Assembly (NCBI RefSeq): GCF_016717175.1
Contig: NZ_JADKFZ010000004.1
Length of the DNA stretch: 64,000 nt
From: Nannocystis sp.
GTDB taxonomy: Bacteria > Myxococcota_A > Polyangia > Nannocystales > Nannocystaceae
Strand: one strand, 5' to 3'
Numbering within the stretch: position 1 is the first letter of the stretch; the number at the start of each line of letters is the position of its first letter. This document shows, one piece after another, positions 9,331 to 57,382 of this stretch. A program made the translations under genes and the position numbers. Under the pieces are notes generated by a model, which saw only the letters and a list, made by a program, of their open reading frames with translations, was not told the DNA's origin and did no database searches.

Positions 9331-11818
9331 GCACGACGGTGAGGCTGCTGAGGGCCATCGCCAGGGCGGCGAGGGCGGGGTGGAGCGCGCGCAGGAAGCC
9401 CGGGGCGGCGGCGATCGGGTAGAGGGCGCCGGCGGCCACCGGGATCAGGACGAGGTTGTAGATCGAGGCCCACAGCAGGTTCTGGCGGACCACGGCGAGG
9501 GTGCGGCGCGACAGCTCCAGGGCCTCGGGCAGGCCGCGGAGGTCGCTGCGCATGAGGGTGAGGTCGGCGGCGTGGATCGCGACCTCGGCGCCGCTGCCCA
9601 TGGCGACGCCGAGGTCGGCCTGGGCCAGGGCGGGGCCGTCGTTGATGCCGTCGCCGACCATGCCGACCGGGCCGTCCCGCTGGAGCGTGACGATCGCGGC
9701 GGCCTTGTCGGCCGGGAGCACGCCGGCGATCACGTCGGCGGCGGGGATGCCGGCCTGGGCGGCGATGGCGATGGCGACCTGGCGGTGGTCGCCGGTCAGC
9801 ATGAGCACGCGCAGGCCGGCGCGGCGCAGGGTGGCGACGGCCTCGGCGGCCTCGGGGCGCAGGGCGTCGGCCAGGGCGAGCAGGCCGAGCAGGGCGCCGT
9901 CGCGGGCCAGCCAGACGAGGGTCTGCGGGGCCTGCAGGGCGGCGGCGGGGAGGGCGAGGAGGGCGGGTGTCGCTTGGGACAGGTGGGTGGGCGCGGGTGA
10001 GGGTGTCTCTTGGGACAGGTCGATGGTGGGCGCGGGGGAGGGTGGTTCTTGGGGCAGGTCGGTGGTGGATGTCCCGGCGGACAGGTCGGGTGTCGCTTGG
10101 GACAGGTGGGTGGCGGCTGTCCCGGGGGACAGGTTTGATGTCTCTTGGGACAGGTTGATCGTGGCGCTGGCGGTGGCTGTCCCGGCGGACAGGTCGGCGG
10201 CGAGGGCGGTGAGGGCGGTGGTGTCGACGTGGTTGCTGGTGAGCCAGCGTTCGCTGCCGATGAGGAGGTCGTGGCCGTCGACGCGGGTGCGCAGGCCGTG
10301 GCCGCCGACGGCGCGGAGGCTGTCGCTGGCGGGGAGCGCCTGGCCGGCGTCGCGGGCGGCGCTGACGATCGCGCGGGCGAGCGGGTGCTCGCTGCGCTGC
10401 TCGGCGGCGGCGGCGAGGCGGAGGAGCTCGCGCGGGTCGACGCCGGGGGCGGGCGCGAGGGCGCTGAGCGTGGGGCGGCCGCGGGTGAGGGTGCCGGTCT
10501 TGTCGAGGACGAGGGTGCGCAGGGCCTGGGCTCGCTCGAGCGCGGCCATGTTCTTGAACAGGACGCCGCGGCGGGCGGCGGCGCCGGTGCCGACGACGAT
10601 CGCGGTCGGGGTGGCGAGGCCGAGGGCGCAGGGGCAGGCGATCACGAGGACGGCGACGGCGCGCAGGAGGGCCGCGCCGGCGCCCTGGTCGGCGAGCAGC
10701 CACCACAGCGTGAAGGTGAGGCCGGCGAGGGCGAGGACGACGGGGACGAACACGGCGGCGACGCGGTCGACCAGGCGCTGCACGGGGGCCTTGCTGGCCT
10801 GGGCGGCGCGGACGAGGCGGACGATCTGGGCCAGGGCCGTGGCTGCGCCGACGCGGGTGGCCTCGATCTCGAGGGCGCCGTCGCCGTTGACGGTGGCGCC
10901 GGTGACGGGGTCGCCGGTGGTCTTGCCGACGGGGCGGCTCTCGCCGGTCAGCATGCTCTCGTCGACCTCGGAGGCGCCGCTGCGGACGACGCCGTCGACC
11001 GGGATCGCGGCGCCAGGGGCGACCAACACGGTGTCGCGGACCCGGACCTCTGCGGCGGGGATCTCGAGCTCGTGGCCGTCGCGGCGGACCCGGGCGGTGG
11101 CGGGGCGGAGCGCGAGCAGGGCCCGGATCGCGGCGCCGGCCTGGCCGCGGGCGCGGGTCTCGAGCAGGCGGCCGACGGCGACGAGGGTGACGATCGCGGC
11201 GGCGGTCTCGAAGTGGACGTGGTGGCCGAGAGCGTGGCTGCCGAGGGACTCGGCGACGACCACCGGGACGCTGGCGAGGAAGGCCACGCCGGCGCCGAGG
11301 CTGATCAGGACGTCCATGGTGGCGGCGCGGGCCTTGAGCGCGTGCCAGGCCCCGCGCAGGTGCGGCGCGCCGGTGTAGGCGAGGACCGGCAGGGCGAGCG
11401 CCAGCATGAGCCACAGGAGCCACGGGGCGGCCGTCCAGGCGCCGAGCAGGTCGAAGTCGCGGCCCATGCCGAGGACCATCAGCGGGGCGGTGCAGGCGAT
11501 CCCGACGAGGACGCGGCGGCGCTGACTGGCGAGCTCGGCGGCGCGGGCCAGCAGCTCGGCATCGTCGCCGCCCTCGCTGCCCGCGATCACGCTGTAGCCG
11601 GCGGCCTCGACGGCGGCGACCAGCTCACCGCGAGTGACTGTGCCGGGGGTCGCCAGGTGCACGCGGGCGGTCTCACTGGCGAAGTTGACGGCGGCCGCGG
11701 CGACGCCGGGGACGCTGGTGAGCGCGCGTTCGACGGTGTTCGCACAGTTGGCGCAGCGCAGCCCGGCGATCGCCAGCTCGAACTCGGGGTCGTCGGCGGC
11801 GGGCACGGAGCCGAGCAT
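9281..11818 (-). CDS. copA: heavy-metal (Cu+-type) P1B-type ATPase with N-terminal HMA domain
   Basis: [19 protein letters not shown], transmembrane CPC (IACPCALG), [15 protein letters not shown]. Carries an in-frame repeat insertion at 9960-10200. Confidence 0.8.
9960..10200. repeat. in-frame tandem repeat array (~24-27 bp units carrying GGGACAGGT/ACCTGTCCC) inside the P-type ATPase nucleotide-binding region
   Basis: gggtgtcgcttgggacaggtgggtgg...gggtgtctcttgggacaggtcgatgg... encodes (DLSAGT/HLSQAT/NLSQET...) repeats between LLIGSERWL and the [10 protein letters not shown] segment. Confidence 0.8.
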
Positions 11819-19272: not shown

Positions 19273-19618
19273 GGGGCCCTGGGGCCCGGGGGCCCGGGGG
19301 CGCCGCCCCGCGCCGCGGGGGGCCCTCCGGCGCGCGACGCCTCCGCTAAAGGCAAGGCGGTCGGCGTCGCCGAGAGCCGGCCCCACCCCGGCCCTGAATG
19401 GGGTGACGTCGCTGCGCGGTATGTAGCAGCGAATGCGACGGGTTGCACTCGATATGTCGCATTGCTGTGAGCCTCGAAGCGCTCACCGTTCAATGCACTC
19501 AAATGGGTCCGGGGCAGTCCTGCGGAGCGTCCGTGTCGGGCGCGCACATTGCTGTCGGGCCCATGTCGCCGCAACAATCGTCGTGGCTGCAGAGGATGCA
19601 ACTCCATTCGAAGCAGGC

Positions 19619-19832
19619 CGTGATGCGTCCAATGTGAATGAGTTGTGGTCGCCGTGTGGCACCTTTCGTTCCTGTCCGAAGAGGCAGGTTGCGAGTCTCA
19701 GGCCGGGGCGGGCCTCGGCGACGCCGTGATGCATGCAATGTGAATGAGTTGTGGTCGCCGTGTGGCACCTTTCGTTCCTGTCCGAAGAGGCAGGTTACGA
19801 GTCTCAGGGCCGGGGCGGGTCCGGCCTCGGCA
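19619..19832. repeat. 107-bp tandem duplication (2 copies) of a lower-GC element
   Basis: gtgatgcgtccaatgtgaatgagttgtggtcgccgtgtggcacctttcgttcctgtccgaagaggcaggttgcgagtctcaggccggggcggg... repeats from 19726 with ~6 mismatches. Copy 2 ends in the hairpin GGCCGGggcgggtCCGGCC. Confidence 0.9.
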
Positions 19833-25589: not shown

Positions 25590-26451
25590 GTGCGCCGCCT
25601 CGCCTGTCTCTGGCTCGCCTCCTCGCTGATCGCGGTGGGCGGGCCGGCGCGCCCGCTGCACGCGGCGCCGGTCAGCGAGCGCGCGGCCGATGTGCCGCTC
25701 GCGGTCGAGGGACCTGCGCCAAAGGACAGGTCGGGAGAGGCTGGCGCGGAGGACAGGTCGGCTGGCTCCGGGGTCGGGGTCAGCTGGCCCGGAGGACAGG
25801 TCGGGAGAGGCTGGCCCGGAGGACAGGTCGGGGTCGGCTGGCCCGGAGGACAGGTCGGCTGGCTCTGGGGACAGGTCGACGCCGCGGTCGGCGGCCGAGG
25901 GGATGCCCGCGGCGCCGCGGGTGCCGGCGCCGACGGCTGCGATCAAGGATGGGGGCCCAGAGCTGGTCACGGTGGCGGTCGGGCTCGGGCCCTCGGCGCC
26001 GGGCTCGAAGGCGGAGACGGCGGTGGTCGACGCGCTCGAGCGCGCCGCCCGGGCCTCGCAGGCGCCGCCGACGCTGGTTCGCCGCCTGCGGGCCGGGGCG
26101 GGCGAGGGGCGGGCGATCTGCCGCGAGCGTCGCGACGACCTGGTGCTGCTGCTCGAGTACATGCCCGATCGACCCGAGCCGGTGTTGGTGCCCCGGGACT
26201 GCCGCCTCGACCGTGAGCTGGCGCTCCGGGGGAAGGAGGCCGCAGGTGAGCCGGCCCTCATCGGCGTACTGTGGGAGGAACATCGGGCGCTCGTCCGCGG
26301 CGGGGCCCGCGAGCGCAAGGTGAGGATCAGCCGCAAGGTGAAGACGGGCCTCATCGCTGGCGGGGCGATCGTGGTCGTCGGGCTGGCGATCGTGCTGGTT
26401 GTGGTCAACAGCTTGCGCCGCGAGACGGTCGTGCTCACAGTGGGGCCATGA
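25590..26451 (+). pseudogene. secreted repeat protein with C-terminal TM helix; apparent 1-nt frameshift in a G4 run within the repeat array
   Basis: Signal (V)RRLACLWLASSLIAVGGPARPLHA in the frame starting 25590. The downstream part (PEDRSGEAGPEDRSGSAGPEDRSAGS...VLVPRDCRLDRE...IAGGAIVVVGLAIVLVVV) is in the next frame (track ORF 25690..26451). The frames join if tccGGGGtcgggg loses one G. The stop overlaps the next gene's ATG (ATGA). Confidence 0.5.
25720..25875. repeat. 27-bp tandem repeat array with AGGACAGGTCG core (5-6 copies)
   Basis: ...ggaggacaggtcgggagaggctggcccggaggacaggtcggggtcggctggcccggaggacaggtcggctggctctggggacaggtcgac... Units are multiples of 3 except for one 43-bp unit. Confidence 0.85.
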
Positions 26452-29623: not shown

Positions 29624-31381
29624 TCAGACGCGGGCGTCGGTCTCGAACAGGCGCTCGAGCTCGTCGGCGGACTGCTTGGCGTGGGCGATCAGGGCCTGCT
29701 CGTTGTCGCGGAGGGTGAATTGCTCGGCGAGGACGCGCTCGTCCCAGCGGCGGAAGGCGAGGGTGAGCTCGTGGGCGTCGGCGCGGCCGAGCTCGGTGAG
29801 TGCCTGCTCGGCGAGCTCGAGGCTGGACACGAGGGTCTCGCGGATCACCGTGTCGGCGCCGGCGGCGACGAGCGCGTGGTTGTGCTGGCGGTTGCGGCTG
29901 CGGGCGAGGATCCGCAGCTGGGGGAAGTGCTGGCGCGCGTGCTGGACGATGTGGAGCGCGGCCTCGGTGTCGTCGACGGCGACGATCAGGAGGCGGGCCT
30001 TGTGGGCGCCGGCGGCGTGGAGCAGGTCGAGGCGGGCGGCGTCGCCGTAGAAGATCTTGCTGCCGTAGCGGCGCACGAAGTCGATCTGGGTCGGGCTGAC
30101 CTCGAGCGCGGTGAAGCCGACGCGGGCCATGCGGAGCACGCGGGCGACGATCTGACCGAAGCGGCCGAAGCCGGCGATGATGACCCCGTGGGCCTCGTCG
30201 ATGGTGTCGAAGGGGCGCGGATCTGCGGCTGTCTCTCGGGACAGGCGGTCGCGCAGCAGGAAGAGCAGCGGGGTGGTGACCATCGACAGGGTGACGACCA
30301 GGATCAGCATGTCGGCGGTCGGGCGGTCGAACACGCCGGCCGCGATCGCGGCGCTGCAGACGACGAAGGCGAACTCACCGCCCTGGGACAGGGCGATAGC
30401 GAGGTCGAGGGCGCCGTGGCGCGGCAGCTTGAAGACCAGGCGGCCGAGCACGAGCACGGCGAGCAGCTTGACGGCGACCAGCGCGAGGACCAGGCCGGCG
30501 AGGGTGAGCGGCTGCTCGGCGAGCAGGCCGAGGCGGGCCGACATGCCGACGGCGACGAAGAAGAGGCCGAGCAGGAGGCCCTTGAAGGGGTCGATGTCGG
30601 CCTCTAGCTGGTGGCGGTAGGGCGAGTCGGCGAGCAGCACGCCGGCCAGGAAGGCGCCGAGGGCCATCGACAGGCCGACCTGTTCGACGAGGATCGCGGT
30701 GGCGAGGACGATGAGGAGGGCGAGCGCGGCGGAGAGCTCGCGGATGCGGGTGCCGGCGACGACGCGGAACAGCGGGCCGAGCAGGTAGCGGCCGGCGAAC
30801 ACGAGGCCGACGATGACGCCGAGGGCGAGGCCGACCTGGGCGAGGCCGCTGCGGCCGGCGGCCTCGGCGGCGCGGGCCGTGCCGAGCAGGGGGAGGACGG
30901 CGAGGAGCGGGCTGGCGGCGACGTCCTGGAACAGGAGGATGCCGAACGCGGCGTGGCCGTGAGGGGTGGCGAGGCTGTGGCGGTCGGCGAGGATCTGCAG
31001 GACGATCGCGGTGGACGAGAGGGCGAGGGCGAGGCCGGTGACGATCGCGGCGCTCGGGGGCAGGCCGAGCAGCCAGGCGAGCGGCGCGAGCAGGACGGCG
31101 CTGACGGCCACCTGCAGGCCGCCGTACTCGAACACCTGGGCGCGCAGCTGCCACAGGCGGGCGGGCTGCAGCTCGAGGCCGACGAGGAACATGAGCAGGA
31201 CGACGCCGAGCTCGGCGAAGTGGAGGGTCGAGTCGACCTCGTGGATGAAGCCGAAGCCGGAGGGGCCGATCGCCACGCCCGCGGCGAGGTAGCCGAGCAC
31301 GGCGCCGAGGCCGAGGCGCTTGAACACCGGGACCGCGACGACGGCAGCGGCGAGGAAGATCGTGGCCTGGGCGAGCTGCAT
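29624..31381 (-). CDS. kefB: CPA2-family K+/H+ antiporter with C-terminal TrkA-N (KTN) domain (KefB/KefC-type)
   Basis: MQLAQATIFLAAAVVAVPVFKRLGLGAVLGYLAAGVAIGPSGFGF matches the KefB N-terminus. Na/H-exchanger TM core. C-terminus has GVIIAGFGRFGQIVARVL Rossmann. Start taken at the downstream ATG (31379-31381) of a duplicated start region. Confidence 0.8.
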   Translation of the reverse strand: MQLAQATIFLAAAVVAVPVFKRLGLGAVLGYLAAGVAIGPSGFGFIHEVDSTLHFAELGVVLLMFLVGLELQPARLWQLRAQVFEYGGLQVAVSAVLLAPLAWLLGLPPSAAIVTGLALALSSTAIVLQILADRHSLATPHGHAAFGILLFQDVAASPLLAVLPLLGTARAAEAAGRSGLAQVGLALGVIVGLVFAGRYLLGPLFRVVAGTRIRELSAALALLIVLATAILVEQVGLSMALGAFLAGVLLADSPYRHQLEADIDPFKGLLLGLFFVAVGMSARLGLLAEQPLTLAGLVLALVAVKLLAVLVLGRLVFKLPRHGALDLAIALSQGGEFAFVVCSAAIAAGVFDRPTADMLILVVTLSMVTTPLLFLLRDRLSRETAADPRPFDTIDEAHGVIIAGFGRFGQIVARVLRMARVGFTALEVSPTQIDFVRRYGSKIFYGDAARLDLLHAAGAHKARLLIVAVDDTEAALHIVQHARQHFPQLRILARSRNRQHNHALVAAGADTVIRETLVSSLELAEQALTELGRADAHELTLAFRRWDERVLAEQFTLRDNEQALIAHAKQSADELERLFETDARV

Positions 31382-31486
31382 CCCGGCGGTGATGGTTACG
31401 CGAGCTCGCGGGCGGCGGCGAGGAAGATCGTGGCCTGGGCGAGCTGCATCCCGGCGGTGGTGATTACGCGAGCTCGGGGCGGGCGC
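31351..31486. repeat. 68-bp tandem duplication (2 copies) at the bioB stop / kefB start junction, creating a 17-codon uORF
   Basis: gcggcgaggaagatcgtggcctgggcgagctgcatcccggcggtgatggttacgcgagctcg repeated from 31419 with ~4 mismatches. The upstream copy encodes MQLAQATIFLAAARELA* (31396..31449, minus). Confidence 0.9.
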
Positions 31487-32567
31487 CGAGGACGGGGAGG
31501 CGGCGGACCGGCGCACGGGGGGAAGCGGCCGCTGCGGCGAGCTCGGGGCGCGGGGCGCCGCAGACGGAGCCCTCGAGGCCGAGCTGGGCGAGCATGTCGA
31601 GGTCGTCCTGGACCGAGCGGTTGGGGGTGGTGAGGAAGTCGCCGATCATCATGCCGGAGGCGCCGGCGCTGAAGATGAGCGGCTGGAGCTGGCCGAGGTG
31701 CTGGCGGCCGGCGGCGATGAAGATGTTCTGGCGCGGGAGGGCGAGGCGGAAGCAGGCGATGATGCGCAGCATCTCGAGCGGCTGCAGCGGCTCGGAGCGG
31801 GCCAGGCGGGTGCCGTCGACGCTGACGAGGAAGTTGATCGGGACCTCGTCGACGTCGAGGGCGCGCAGGTCCATGGCCAGCTCGGCGCGGTGCTCGGGGC
31901 GCTCGCCCATGCCCATGATGCCGCCGACGCAGGTGCGCAGGCCGAGCTCCCTGGCGTGGCGGATGGTGGCGATGCGGTCGTCGTAGCTGTGGGTGGTGAC
32001 GACCTCGCCGAAGTAGCCGCGGCCGGTCTCGAGGTTGTGGTTGAACTCGGTCATGCCGGCGTCCTTGAGCCGCTGCAGGCCGGCCTTGCTGACGAAGCCG
32101 AGCGAGGCGTGGGCCTCGGTGAAGCCGGCCTCACGCACGGCGCGGATGCCCTCGACCATGTGCTCGAGCGCGCGGGAGCCGTCTTCGTAGCCGCGGGTGG
32201 CGGTGACCAGGCCGAGCGCGCTGGCCCCCTGGGCCTGGGCGCGCAGGCTGGCGCTGACCATCTGATCGTGCGTGAGGAATTTTTCGGCGCTGACGCCGGT
32301 GTCGAAGTGCTTCGACTGGGCACAGAAGCCGCAGTCCTCGGGGCAGCCGCCCTGCTTGGCGTTGACGATCGAGCACAGGTGGACGTGGTTGCCGAAGCGC
32401 CCGCGGCGGACGCGGTCGGCGGCGGCGATGAGCTCCCAGGTGTCGTGCTCACCGGCGAGGTAGCGGGTCAGGCTGGCAGCGTCGAGCGCGTCGAGCTCGC
32501 CAGCGAGGACGCGATCGGCGATCGCGTGCGGGGCGGGGAGATCGAGGGGCCGCGCTTCATGCTGCAT
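31464..32567 (-). CDS. bioB: biotin synthase
   Basis: Radical-SAM CSIVNAKQGGCPEDCGFC (CxxxCxxC), a YNHNLET-type motif, and biotin-synthase length. Confidence 0.9.
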   Translation of the reverse strand: MQHEARPLDLPAPHAIADRVLAGELDALDAASLTRYLAGEHDTWELIAAADRVRRGRFGNHVHLCSIVNAKQGGCPEDCGFCAQSKHFDTGVSAEKFLTHDQMVSASLRAQAQGASALGLVTATRGYEDGSRALEHMVEGIRAVREAGFTEAHASLGFVSKAGLQRLKDAGMTEFNHNLETGRGYFGEVVTTHSYDDRIATIRHARELGLRTCVGGIMGMGERPEHRAELAMDLRALDVDEVPINFLVSVDGTRLARSEPLQPLEMLRIIACFRLALPRQNIFIAAGRQHLGQLQPLIFSAGASGMMIGDFLTTPNRSVQDDLDMLAQLGLEGSVCGAPRPELAAAAASPRAPVRRLPVLGARPELA

Positions 32568-57232: not shown

Positions 57233-57382
57233 GGCGCGGGGGACAGGTGCGAGGAGACAGGTGCGAAGGGACAGGTTGGAAGGGACAGGTGGGATGGCCG
57301 CGGGGACAGGTGCGAAGGGACAGGTGGGGATGGCCGAAGGGACAGGTGGGAGGGGACCGGTGGGGATGGCCGAAGGGACAGC
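57233..57382. repeat. intergenic tandem array of ~14-25-bp units built on GGGACAGGTG (about 9 copies)
   Basis: ggggacaggtgcgaggagacaggtgcgaagggacaggttggaagggacaggtgggatggccgcggggacaggtgcgaagggacaggtggggatggccgaagggacaggtgggaggggaccggtggggatggccgaagggacagctcaggtgg. Lies directly upstream of the ATG at 57232, between the two M16 genes. Confidence 0.9.

Follow-up and report, generated by a model that had tools for sequence, protein, structure and literature searches.

The duplicated bioB-kefB junction

The 64,000-nt stretch analysed here (the window; Nannocystis sp., contig NZ_JADKFZ010000004.1 of assembly GCF_016717175.1) carries the biotin synthase gene bioB, followed by a gene for a KefB-like K+ transporter, and the junction between the two genes is occupied by two copies of a 68-nt unit. 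Both genes, both units and a short upstream open reading frame (uORF) lying between the genes are encoded on the minus strand, as follows:

31464..32567 (-): bioB (biotin synthase), 367 aa, ending in ...LGARPELA, with its TAA stop at 31466-31464
31479..31492 (-): upstream homology arm in the bioB tail, TCCTCGGCGCCCGC..., resembling the TCCTCGCCGCCGCC that ends each unit (6 nt exact, 11/14 overall)
31411..31478 (-): repeat unit A, CCC GAG CTC GCG TAA (bioB end), the 14-nt spacer TCACCACCGCCGGG and ATG...GCC (13 codons copied from kefB)
31396..31449 (-): uORF of 17 codons, MQLAQATIFLAAARELA and stop, with its ATG at 31449 and its TAA at 31398-31396
31343..31410 (-): repeat unit B, CGC GAG CTC GCG TAA (copied bioB end, now the uORF end), the 14-nt spacer CCATCACCGCCGGG and the true start of the kefB-like gene, ATG...GCT GCC
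29624..31381 (-): KefB/KefC-like CPA2 K+ efflux/antiporter gene with a KTN domain, 585 aa, with its ATG at 31381

An earlier note on this DNA had proposed a 68-bp tandem duplication at the bioB-kefB junction, and the repeat analyses bore this out. Tandem Repeats Finder (TRF) reported a 68-nt period at 31343-31492 (2.2 copies, 92% matches, score 254), and alignment of 31343-31410 with 31411-31478 gave 94% identity (64/68 nt). The two units (31478-31411 and 31410-31343) abut head-to-tail with nothing between them, and their four mismatches fall at unit positions 2, 16, 19 and 65. A 61-nt degenerate pattern of the unit had two exact matches in the window and none in 100 dinucleotide-preserving shuffles. 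A dispersed repeat or mobile element was rejected, as the 61-nt unit was found nowhere else in the window.

The duplicated kefB start and the 17-codon uORF, both claimed in the same note, were likewise present, with the upstream ATG opening the frame MQLAQATIFLAAARELA up to its stop. The uORF (ATG CAG CTC GCC CAG GCC ACG ATC TTC CTC GCC GCC GCC CGC GAG CTC GCG TAA) consists of the first 13 codons of kefB, whose own 5' end reads ATG CAG CTC GCC CAG GCC ACG ATC TTC CTC GCC GCT GCC GTC GTC..., fused in frame to the R-E-L-A-stop of the copied bioB end (the native bioB 3' end reads ...GGC GCC CGC CCC GAG CTC GCG TAA). A distance of 14 nt separates the bioB stop from the uORF ATG, and again the uORF stop from the kefB ATG, so that the description of two near-identical copies, each with the bioB end, a spacer and the kefB start, stood, and the stated distance of 12 nt between the uORF stop and kefB did not. 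The full gap from the bioB stop to the kefB ATG measures 82 nt, and the duplication leaves both genes intact, with the native bioB end and the native kefB start.

The BioB protein contained the Pfam Radical_SAM and BATS domains and reached the equivalog level of NCBIfam TIGR00433 (345 bits, cut-off 225). The product of the downstream gene contained Na_H_Exchanger and TrkA_N (KTN) domains and passed the CPA2 subfamily model TIGR00932 (272, cut-off 238); its best NCBIfam matches, the KefC (668 bits, cut-off 752) and KefB (598 bits, cut-off 804) equivalogs, were both below threshold. The label kefB used in the earlier note is therefore sound for the CPA2 subfamily and too specific at the equivalog level, and the most defensible designation is a KefB/KefC-like CPA2 gene encoding a KTN domain; kefB is used below for brevity. 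The reading frame is open back to 31516, and a longer KefB from an upstream start was considered and rejected. As homologues measure 584-590 aa and the NCBI protein P0001 (MBK9754166.1, named 'MAG: ... Nannocystis sp.', where MAG denotes a metagenome-assembled genome; 100% identical to the window KefB) measures 585 aa, ATG 31381 is the real kefB start.

With an E1 dehydrogenase gene in divergent and an aminotransferase gene in convergent orientation as its neighbours, the bioB-kefB pair looks like a two-gene unit; the adjacency of bioB and kefB was kept down to 63% KefB identity. Among 120 BioB homologues, Nannocystaceae proteins had the common C-terminal form CGxPRPEL...RRLPV[LVM]A-stop, and a terminal 'RPELA'-stop extension was found in the clade of the window and its 86% relatives only. 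The DNA of this extension (31468-31488) resembles the segment encoding the internal PRPELA, 69 nt upstream (31537-31557; 21 nt, 86% identity), and the extension possibly stems from a small, older copying event. An earlier round of the 68-bp duplication absorbed into bioB (PRPELA...RPELA-stop) was rejected, the internal CGxPRPEL and the ...RRLPV[LVM]A-stop being conserved across Nannocystaceae.

Distribution, polarity and age of the duplication

The same arrangement was found in six contigs (L075-L080) of ENA, JGI and NCBI metagenome assemblies, several of them labelled wastewater, that encode a 97-98% identical KefB (P0004, P0005, P0007). In all six (6/6), 82 nt separate the bioB stop from the kefB ATG, the two 68-nt units recur and the 17-codon uORF is present; in this sister lineage it reads MQLAQATIFLAAGRELA up to its stop. 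The six contigs represent no fewer than four kefB haplotypes (pairwise differences, 0-11); three of the contigs share an identical kefB and may be re-assemblies of related samples. The earlier note had regarded a single copy in other isolates as the sign of an assembly artefact; these six independent contigs show two units instead. A DNA scan of metagenome contigs with the kefB 5' 27-mer returned one contig, already in the set, and the scan of genome contigs returned one close species (L001).

A third lineage, whose BioB (P0121) is 98% identical to that of the window, was represented by four contigs (L088-L091) of Logan, which uses k = 31, and carries the exact unit-A spacer of the window. Three of the four (L088-L090) stop exactly 34 nt past the bioB stop. 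Each finishes on the final 31-mer that belongs to unit A alone, and the 30-mer left after removal of its first base is present twice in the window junction. A de Bruijn graph that breaks where it runs into a repeat leaves ends of just this kind. The fourth, L091 (SRR30303840), encodes the same BioB protein and has, at 1377-1506, a single-copy junction in which the unit-A spacer runs straight into kefB. The two units share a 45-nt identical core, across which no 31-mer links unit-specific positions, and L091 is either a genuine one-copy allele (a revertant or the ancestral type) or a k = 31 graph collapse. By the contigs of these relatives, an assembly artefact is effectively excluded for the clade.

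In the comparison of orthologous loci that the earlier note had called for, more distant relatives had one junction: TAA, 15 nt and ATG in L001, L082, L083 and L084 (86-87% KefB identity), TGA, 7 nt and ATG in L086 (81%), and TAG, 28 nt and GTG in L087 (63%). Because all relatives at or below 87% KefB identity have a single junction, the duplication is derived. In a further lineage with 84% KefB identity (L085; Logan SRR11928969, 1-111), the 111 nt upstream of kefB contained no recognisable bioB and had a small tandem repeat of their own, catcaccccggccg, in about 2-3 copies.

Between the window and the sister lineage, kefB DNA was 97.3% identical and 36 of the 586 third-codon positions differed (6.2%). 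Comparing the four units of the two lineages over 68 nt, distances were 4 and 5 between paralogues, 5 and 4 between orthologues, and 5-6 crosswise, so that the paralogous copies have diverged by 6-7%. Nine columns were variable: one A/B-shared (position 2, CCC in A and CGC in B in both lineages), one concerted (position 21, A in both window units and G in both sister units), the latter suggesting gene conversion between the units, and seven singletons. Of the singletons, four lie in the 14-nt spacers, two are synonymous (one each in bioB and kefB) and the last, A13G, is non-synonymous in the uORF. The branches of the resulting four-unit tree radiate almost as in a star, which places the duplication at about the lineage split or somewhat before it; the copies have since changed at a roughly neutral rate. 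To judge by these distances, it is an inherited feature about as old as the split of the two lineages. The 'recent duplication' of the earlier note thus holds in the sense of a derived state, and not in the sense of a strain-level event, since at least two lineages carry it.

The CCC to CGC change at the unit junction also lengthens a palindrome in the last codons of the uORF (31399-31410), from the ancestral 8 nt (CGAGCTCG) to a perfect 12 nt (CGCGAGCTCGCG); the longer form is present in the window and in the sister lineage.

Probable origin of the duplication and its predicted consequences for translation

The 68-bp head-to-tail duplication would have arisen in the ancestor of a species-level clade of uncultured (wastewater) Nannocystis, probably through replication slippage between imperfect GC-rich direct repeats 68-69 nt apart, TCCTCG-GCGCCCGCC in the bioB tail and TCCTCG-CCGCCGCC in kefB codons 9-13. 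In the single-copy arrangement these arms bracket the unit as TCCTCGGCGCCCGC at the bioB end and TCCTCGCCGCCGCC in kefB (6 nt exact, 11/14), and they correspond to the extra 0.2 copy reported by TRF; in the outgroup, only CTCG is exactly common to the two arms. A slippage or microhomology origin is likely on this anatomy. Microhomology-mediated tandem duplication (MTD) is described in a preprint as the dominant route to tandem duplications, bacteria included (bioRxiv 10.64898/2026.02.28.708716), and long GC-rich arms are reported to be about 1000 times more prone to it (PMC8639346). As TRF returned 36 rows in the 64-kb window, short tandem duplication appears commonplace in this genome.

The junction shares with MTD and slipped-strand duplications (PMC8639346; bioRxiv 10.64898/2026.02.28.708716) the short head-to-tail unit, the single-copy state in relatives, the GC-rich direct repeats flanking the ancestral unit, and the many similar short arrays in the genome. 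It differs from them in its imperfect arms and in one extra junction change; moreover, MTDs are subclonal and rapidly reverting, whereas the bioB-kefB duplication is fixed, about 6% diverged and spans a complete stop-start junction. Judged by its anatomy, the feature is a slipped-strand or microhomology-type tandem duplication with imperfect microhomology, and the bioB-kefB case is a further instance of an already known kind of event.

What was copied is a complete module of stop codon, 14-nt spacer, start codon and 13 codons. Because 68 = 29 + 39, the reading frame of the 13 copied kefB codons continues into the copied R-E-L-A-stop, an in-frame stop being an outcome with a 1-in-3 chance. From -29 to +39, the uORF context is identical to that of kefB at 64 of 68 nt; the uORF thereby takes over the whole kefB translation-initiation region, and it should be translated if kefB is, since the two initiation contexts are so nearly the same. 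Translation of the uORF is thus very probable as predicted from sequence.

By inspection, no AGGAGG-like Shine-Dalgarno (SD) core was seen at a usable distance in the spacers of the window or of the outgroups, and kefB may therefore rely on upstream translation. In Escherichia coli reporters, termination-reinitiation was variable at +14 nt and 80-90% or more was lost at 38 nt (PMC10666635). As reinitiation falls so steeply with distance, an untranslated gap of 82 nt would be harmful to a kefB that relies on upstream translation; the uORF would restore the 14-nt stop-start geometry twice and so reproduce the initiation or coupling regime of kefB. With both the initiation region and the 14-nt geometry copied, the duplication would be nearly self-compensating and could therefore be tolerated and fixed. 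We accordingly favour, at a probability of about 0.7, a tolerated and near-neutral by-product of module copying, near-neutrality being deduced from this geometry. Translational coupling is plausible as a passive consequence of the repeated stop-14 nt-start arrangement. The junction resembles known termination-reinitiation systems (PMC6728339; PMC10666635; PMC12548453) in its close co-oriented genes, in the lack of an obvious SD at the downstream start and in a short ORF that ends just upstream of the next start.

Several observations weigh against a purely neutral by-product of slippage. The unit junction (GCC followed by CGC GAG) is not textbook: besides the imperfect arms it involves one extra change (CCC to CGC at position 2), common to all carriers, for which a 71-nt duplication followed by a 3-nt deletion is an alternative to a substitution. 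Well-documented coupling uses -4/-1 overlaps or very short gaps (PMC10666635), whereas the distance is 14 nt at both junctions here and the stop-start spacing in relatives is 7-28 nt, so that coupling at 14 nt is doubtful. The start, frame and stop of the uORF and both 14-nt spacers are intact in two lineages, and the two-copy state has persisted despite 39-45 nt of perfect identity between the copies and about 3% neutral divergence per lineage. In Schizosaccharomyces pombe, newly formed tandem duplications are lost again at about 1e-4 per cell, 100 times the forward rate (PMC8639346), and because reversion is that fast, persistence hints at selected retention or at a much lower reversion rate in this Nannocystis.

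The last two points would fit a uORF under selection, in which the duplication was kept because the mini-ORF sets kefB translation; possible roles are a two-step termination-reinitiation relay that re-establishes a short distance from stop to start, a lowering or buffering of KefB relative to BioB, and prevention of folding at the SD-less kefB start. The absence of an AGGAGG-like core upstream of the kefB ATG and the loss of coupling expected over 82 nt without the uORF (PMC10666635) fit it as well. Over two lineages, however, one uORF substitution was observed against about 3.3 expected under neutrality (third-codon rate), which is no statistical signal of constraint (Poisson P ~0.16; an underpowered comparison), and the non-synonymous A13G is among the few changes. 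The uORF was absent from all outgroups examined, where kefB functions with a plain junction, and the in-frame stop would come about unaided in one case out of three. The uORF and junction showed no stalling motif, no alternative hairpins and no regulatory codons. A selected relay or leader uORF is accordingly an unlikely explanation, and it is equally doubtful that a leader ORF born in one step is maintained by selection against repeat collapse and tunes or insulates synthesis of the KefB-like transporter relative to BioB.

The 'attenuation device' suggested in the earlier note found no support in the tests for a regulatory element. The 201-nt junction RNA folded no better than its shuffles (z = -0.61; z = +1.26 for a single-copy outgroup), no intrinsic terminator or sigma-70-like promoter was detected at the junction, and the junction matched no Rfam family even at E <= 1; nor was there detectable constraint on the uORF or a uORF in any outgroup. 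Bacterial leader-peptide attenuators include, for example, trpL- and ermCL-type leaders. The bioB-kefB uORF is like them in being a short ORF, predicted to be translated, directly upstream of a gene, and unlike them in lacking alternative hairpins, a terminator, a stalling motif and regulatory codons. Its peptide is also a copy of the KefB N-terminus joined to the BioB C-terminus and is not conserved outside the duplication clade. With the structural hallmarks of attenuators missing, the likeness to a leader or relay ORF appears superficial.

The junction might instead be an unstable, copy-number-variable hotspot of repeated duplication, conversion and collapse through slippage or unequal exchange, with populations polymorphic for one, two or more copies and the two-copy state a snapshot. 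The single copy of L091, with its BioB protein shared with L088-L090, and the concerted change at position 21 point in this direction, but L091 may simply be a k = 31 graph collapse, and no three-copy allele was present among the contigs examined. The window and the six resolved sister contigs all have exactly two units, the common CGC change and lineage-specific singleton differences, which argues for one origin and vertical inheritance and makes a hotspot improbable. A false duplication in the source assembly, to which its MAG origin and a suspicious G run of about 87 nt in the same window might point, is hardly credible: six contigs, produced by different assemblers in different projects, have the two-unit structure under contig names (k127_, k141_, NODE_) that suggest k-mers longer than the unit, the copies differ at four positions, and the third lineage, with the window's exact unit-A spacer, breaks at the repeat.

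Other repeats of the window and significance of the junction

Three further features were observed elsewhere in the window. The 10-mer GGGACAGGTS occurs 15 times (0.41 expected by chance), mostly on the plus strand, at 100, 4032, 9976-10108, 14229, 23091, 25868, 39640, 57240-57348 and 57975; several copies fall within short tandem arrays (TRF rows 9952-10155 and 57264-57381) or next to one (25783-25858), and the motif resembles a dispersed short repeat or a family of binding sites. The intergenic segment 19190-19276 is about 87 nt of almost pure G (88% match to period 1) and could be a real G-tract or a sequencing or assembly artefact in the MAG. An unusually AT-richer non-coding stretch, 19617-19819, holds a 106-bp tandem duplication (1.9 copies, 95% identical) whose copies each end in a GC-rich hairpin-like GGCCGGGGCGGGCC; it had no Rfam match and may be a duplicated small-RNA-like element.

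For annotation, the second ATG is to be taken as the kefB start; assemblies with k = 31 break up at the repeat. Were the uORF under selection, the locus would serve as a natural and tractable model of how bacterial leader or relay cistrons arise, and even then the understanding of K+ efflux or biotin synthesis would be unchanged. As a tolerated by-product, the bioB-kefB junction of this Nannocystis clade is a clean and well-dated case of an ordinary mutational process acting at an operon junction with neither gene broken, and it illustrates how one mutational step may yield a short upstream ORF that already has an initiation region.

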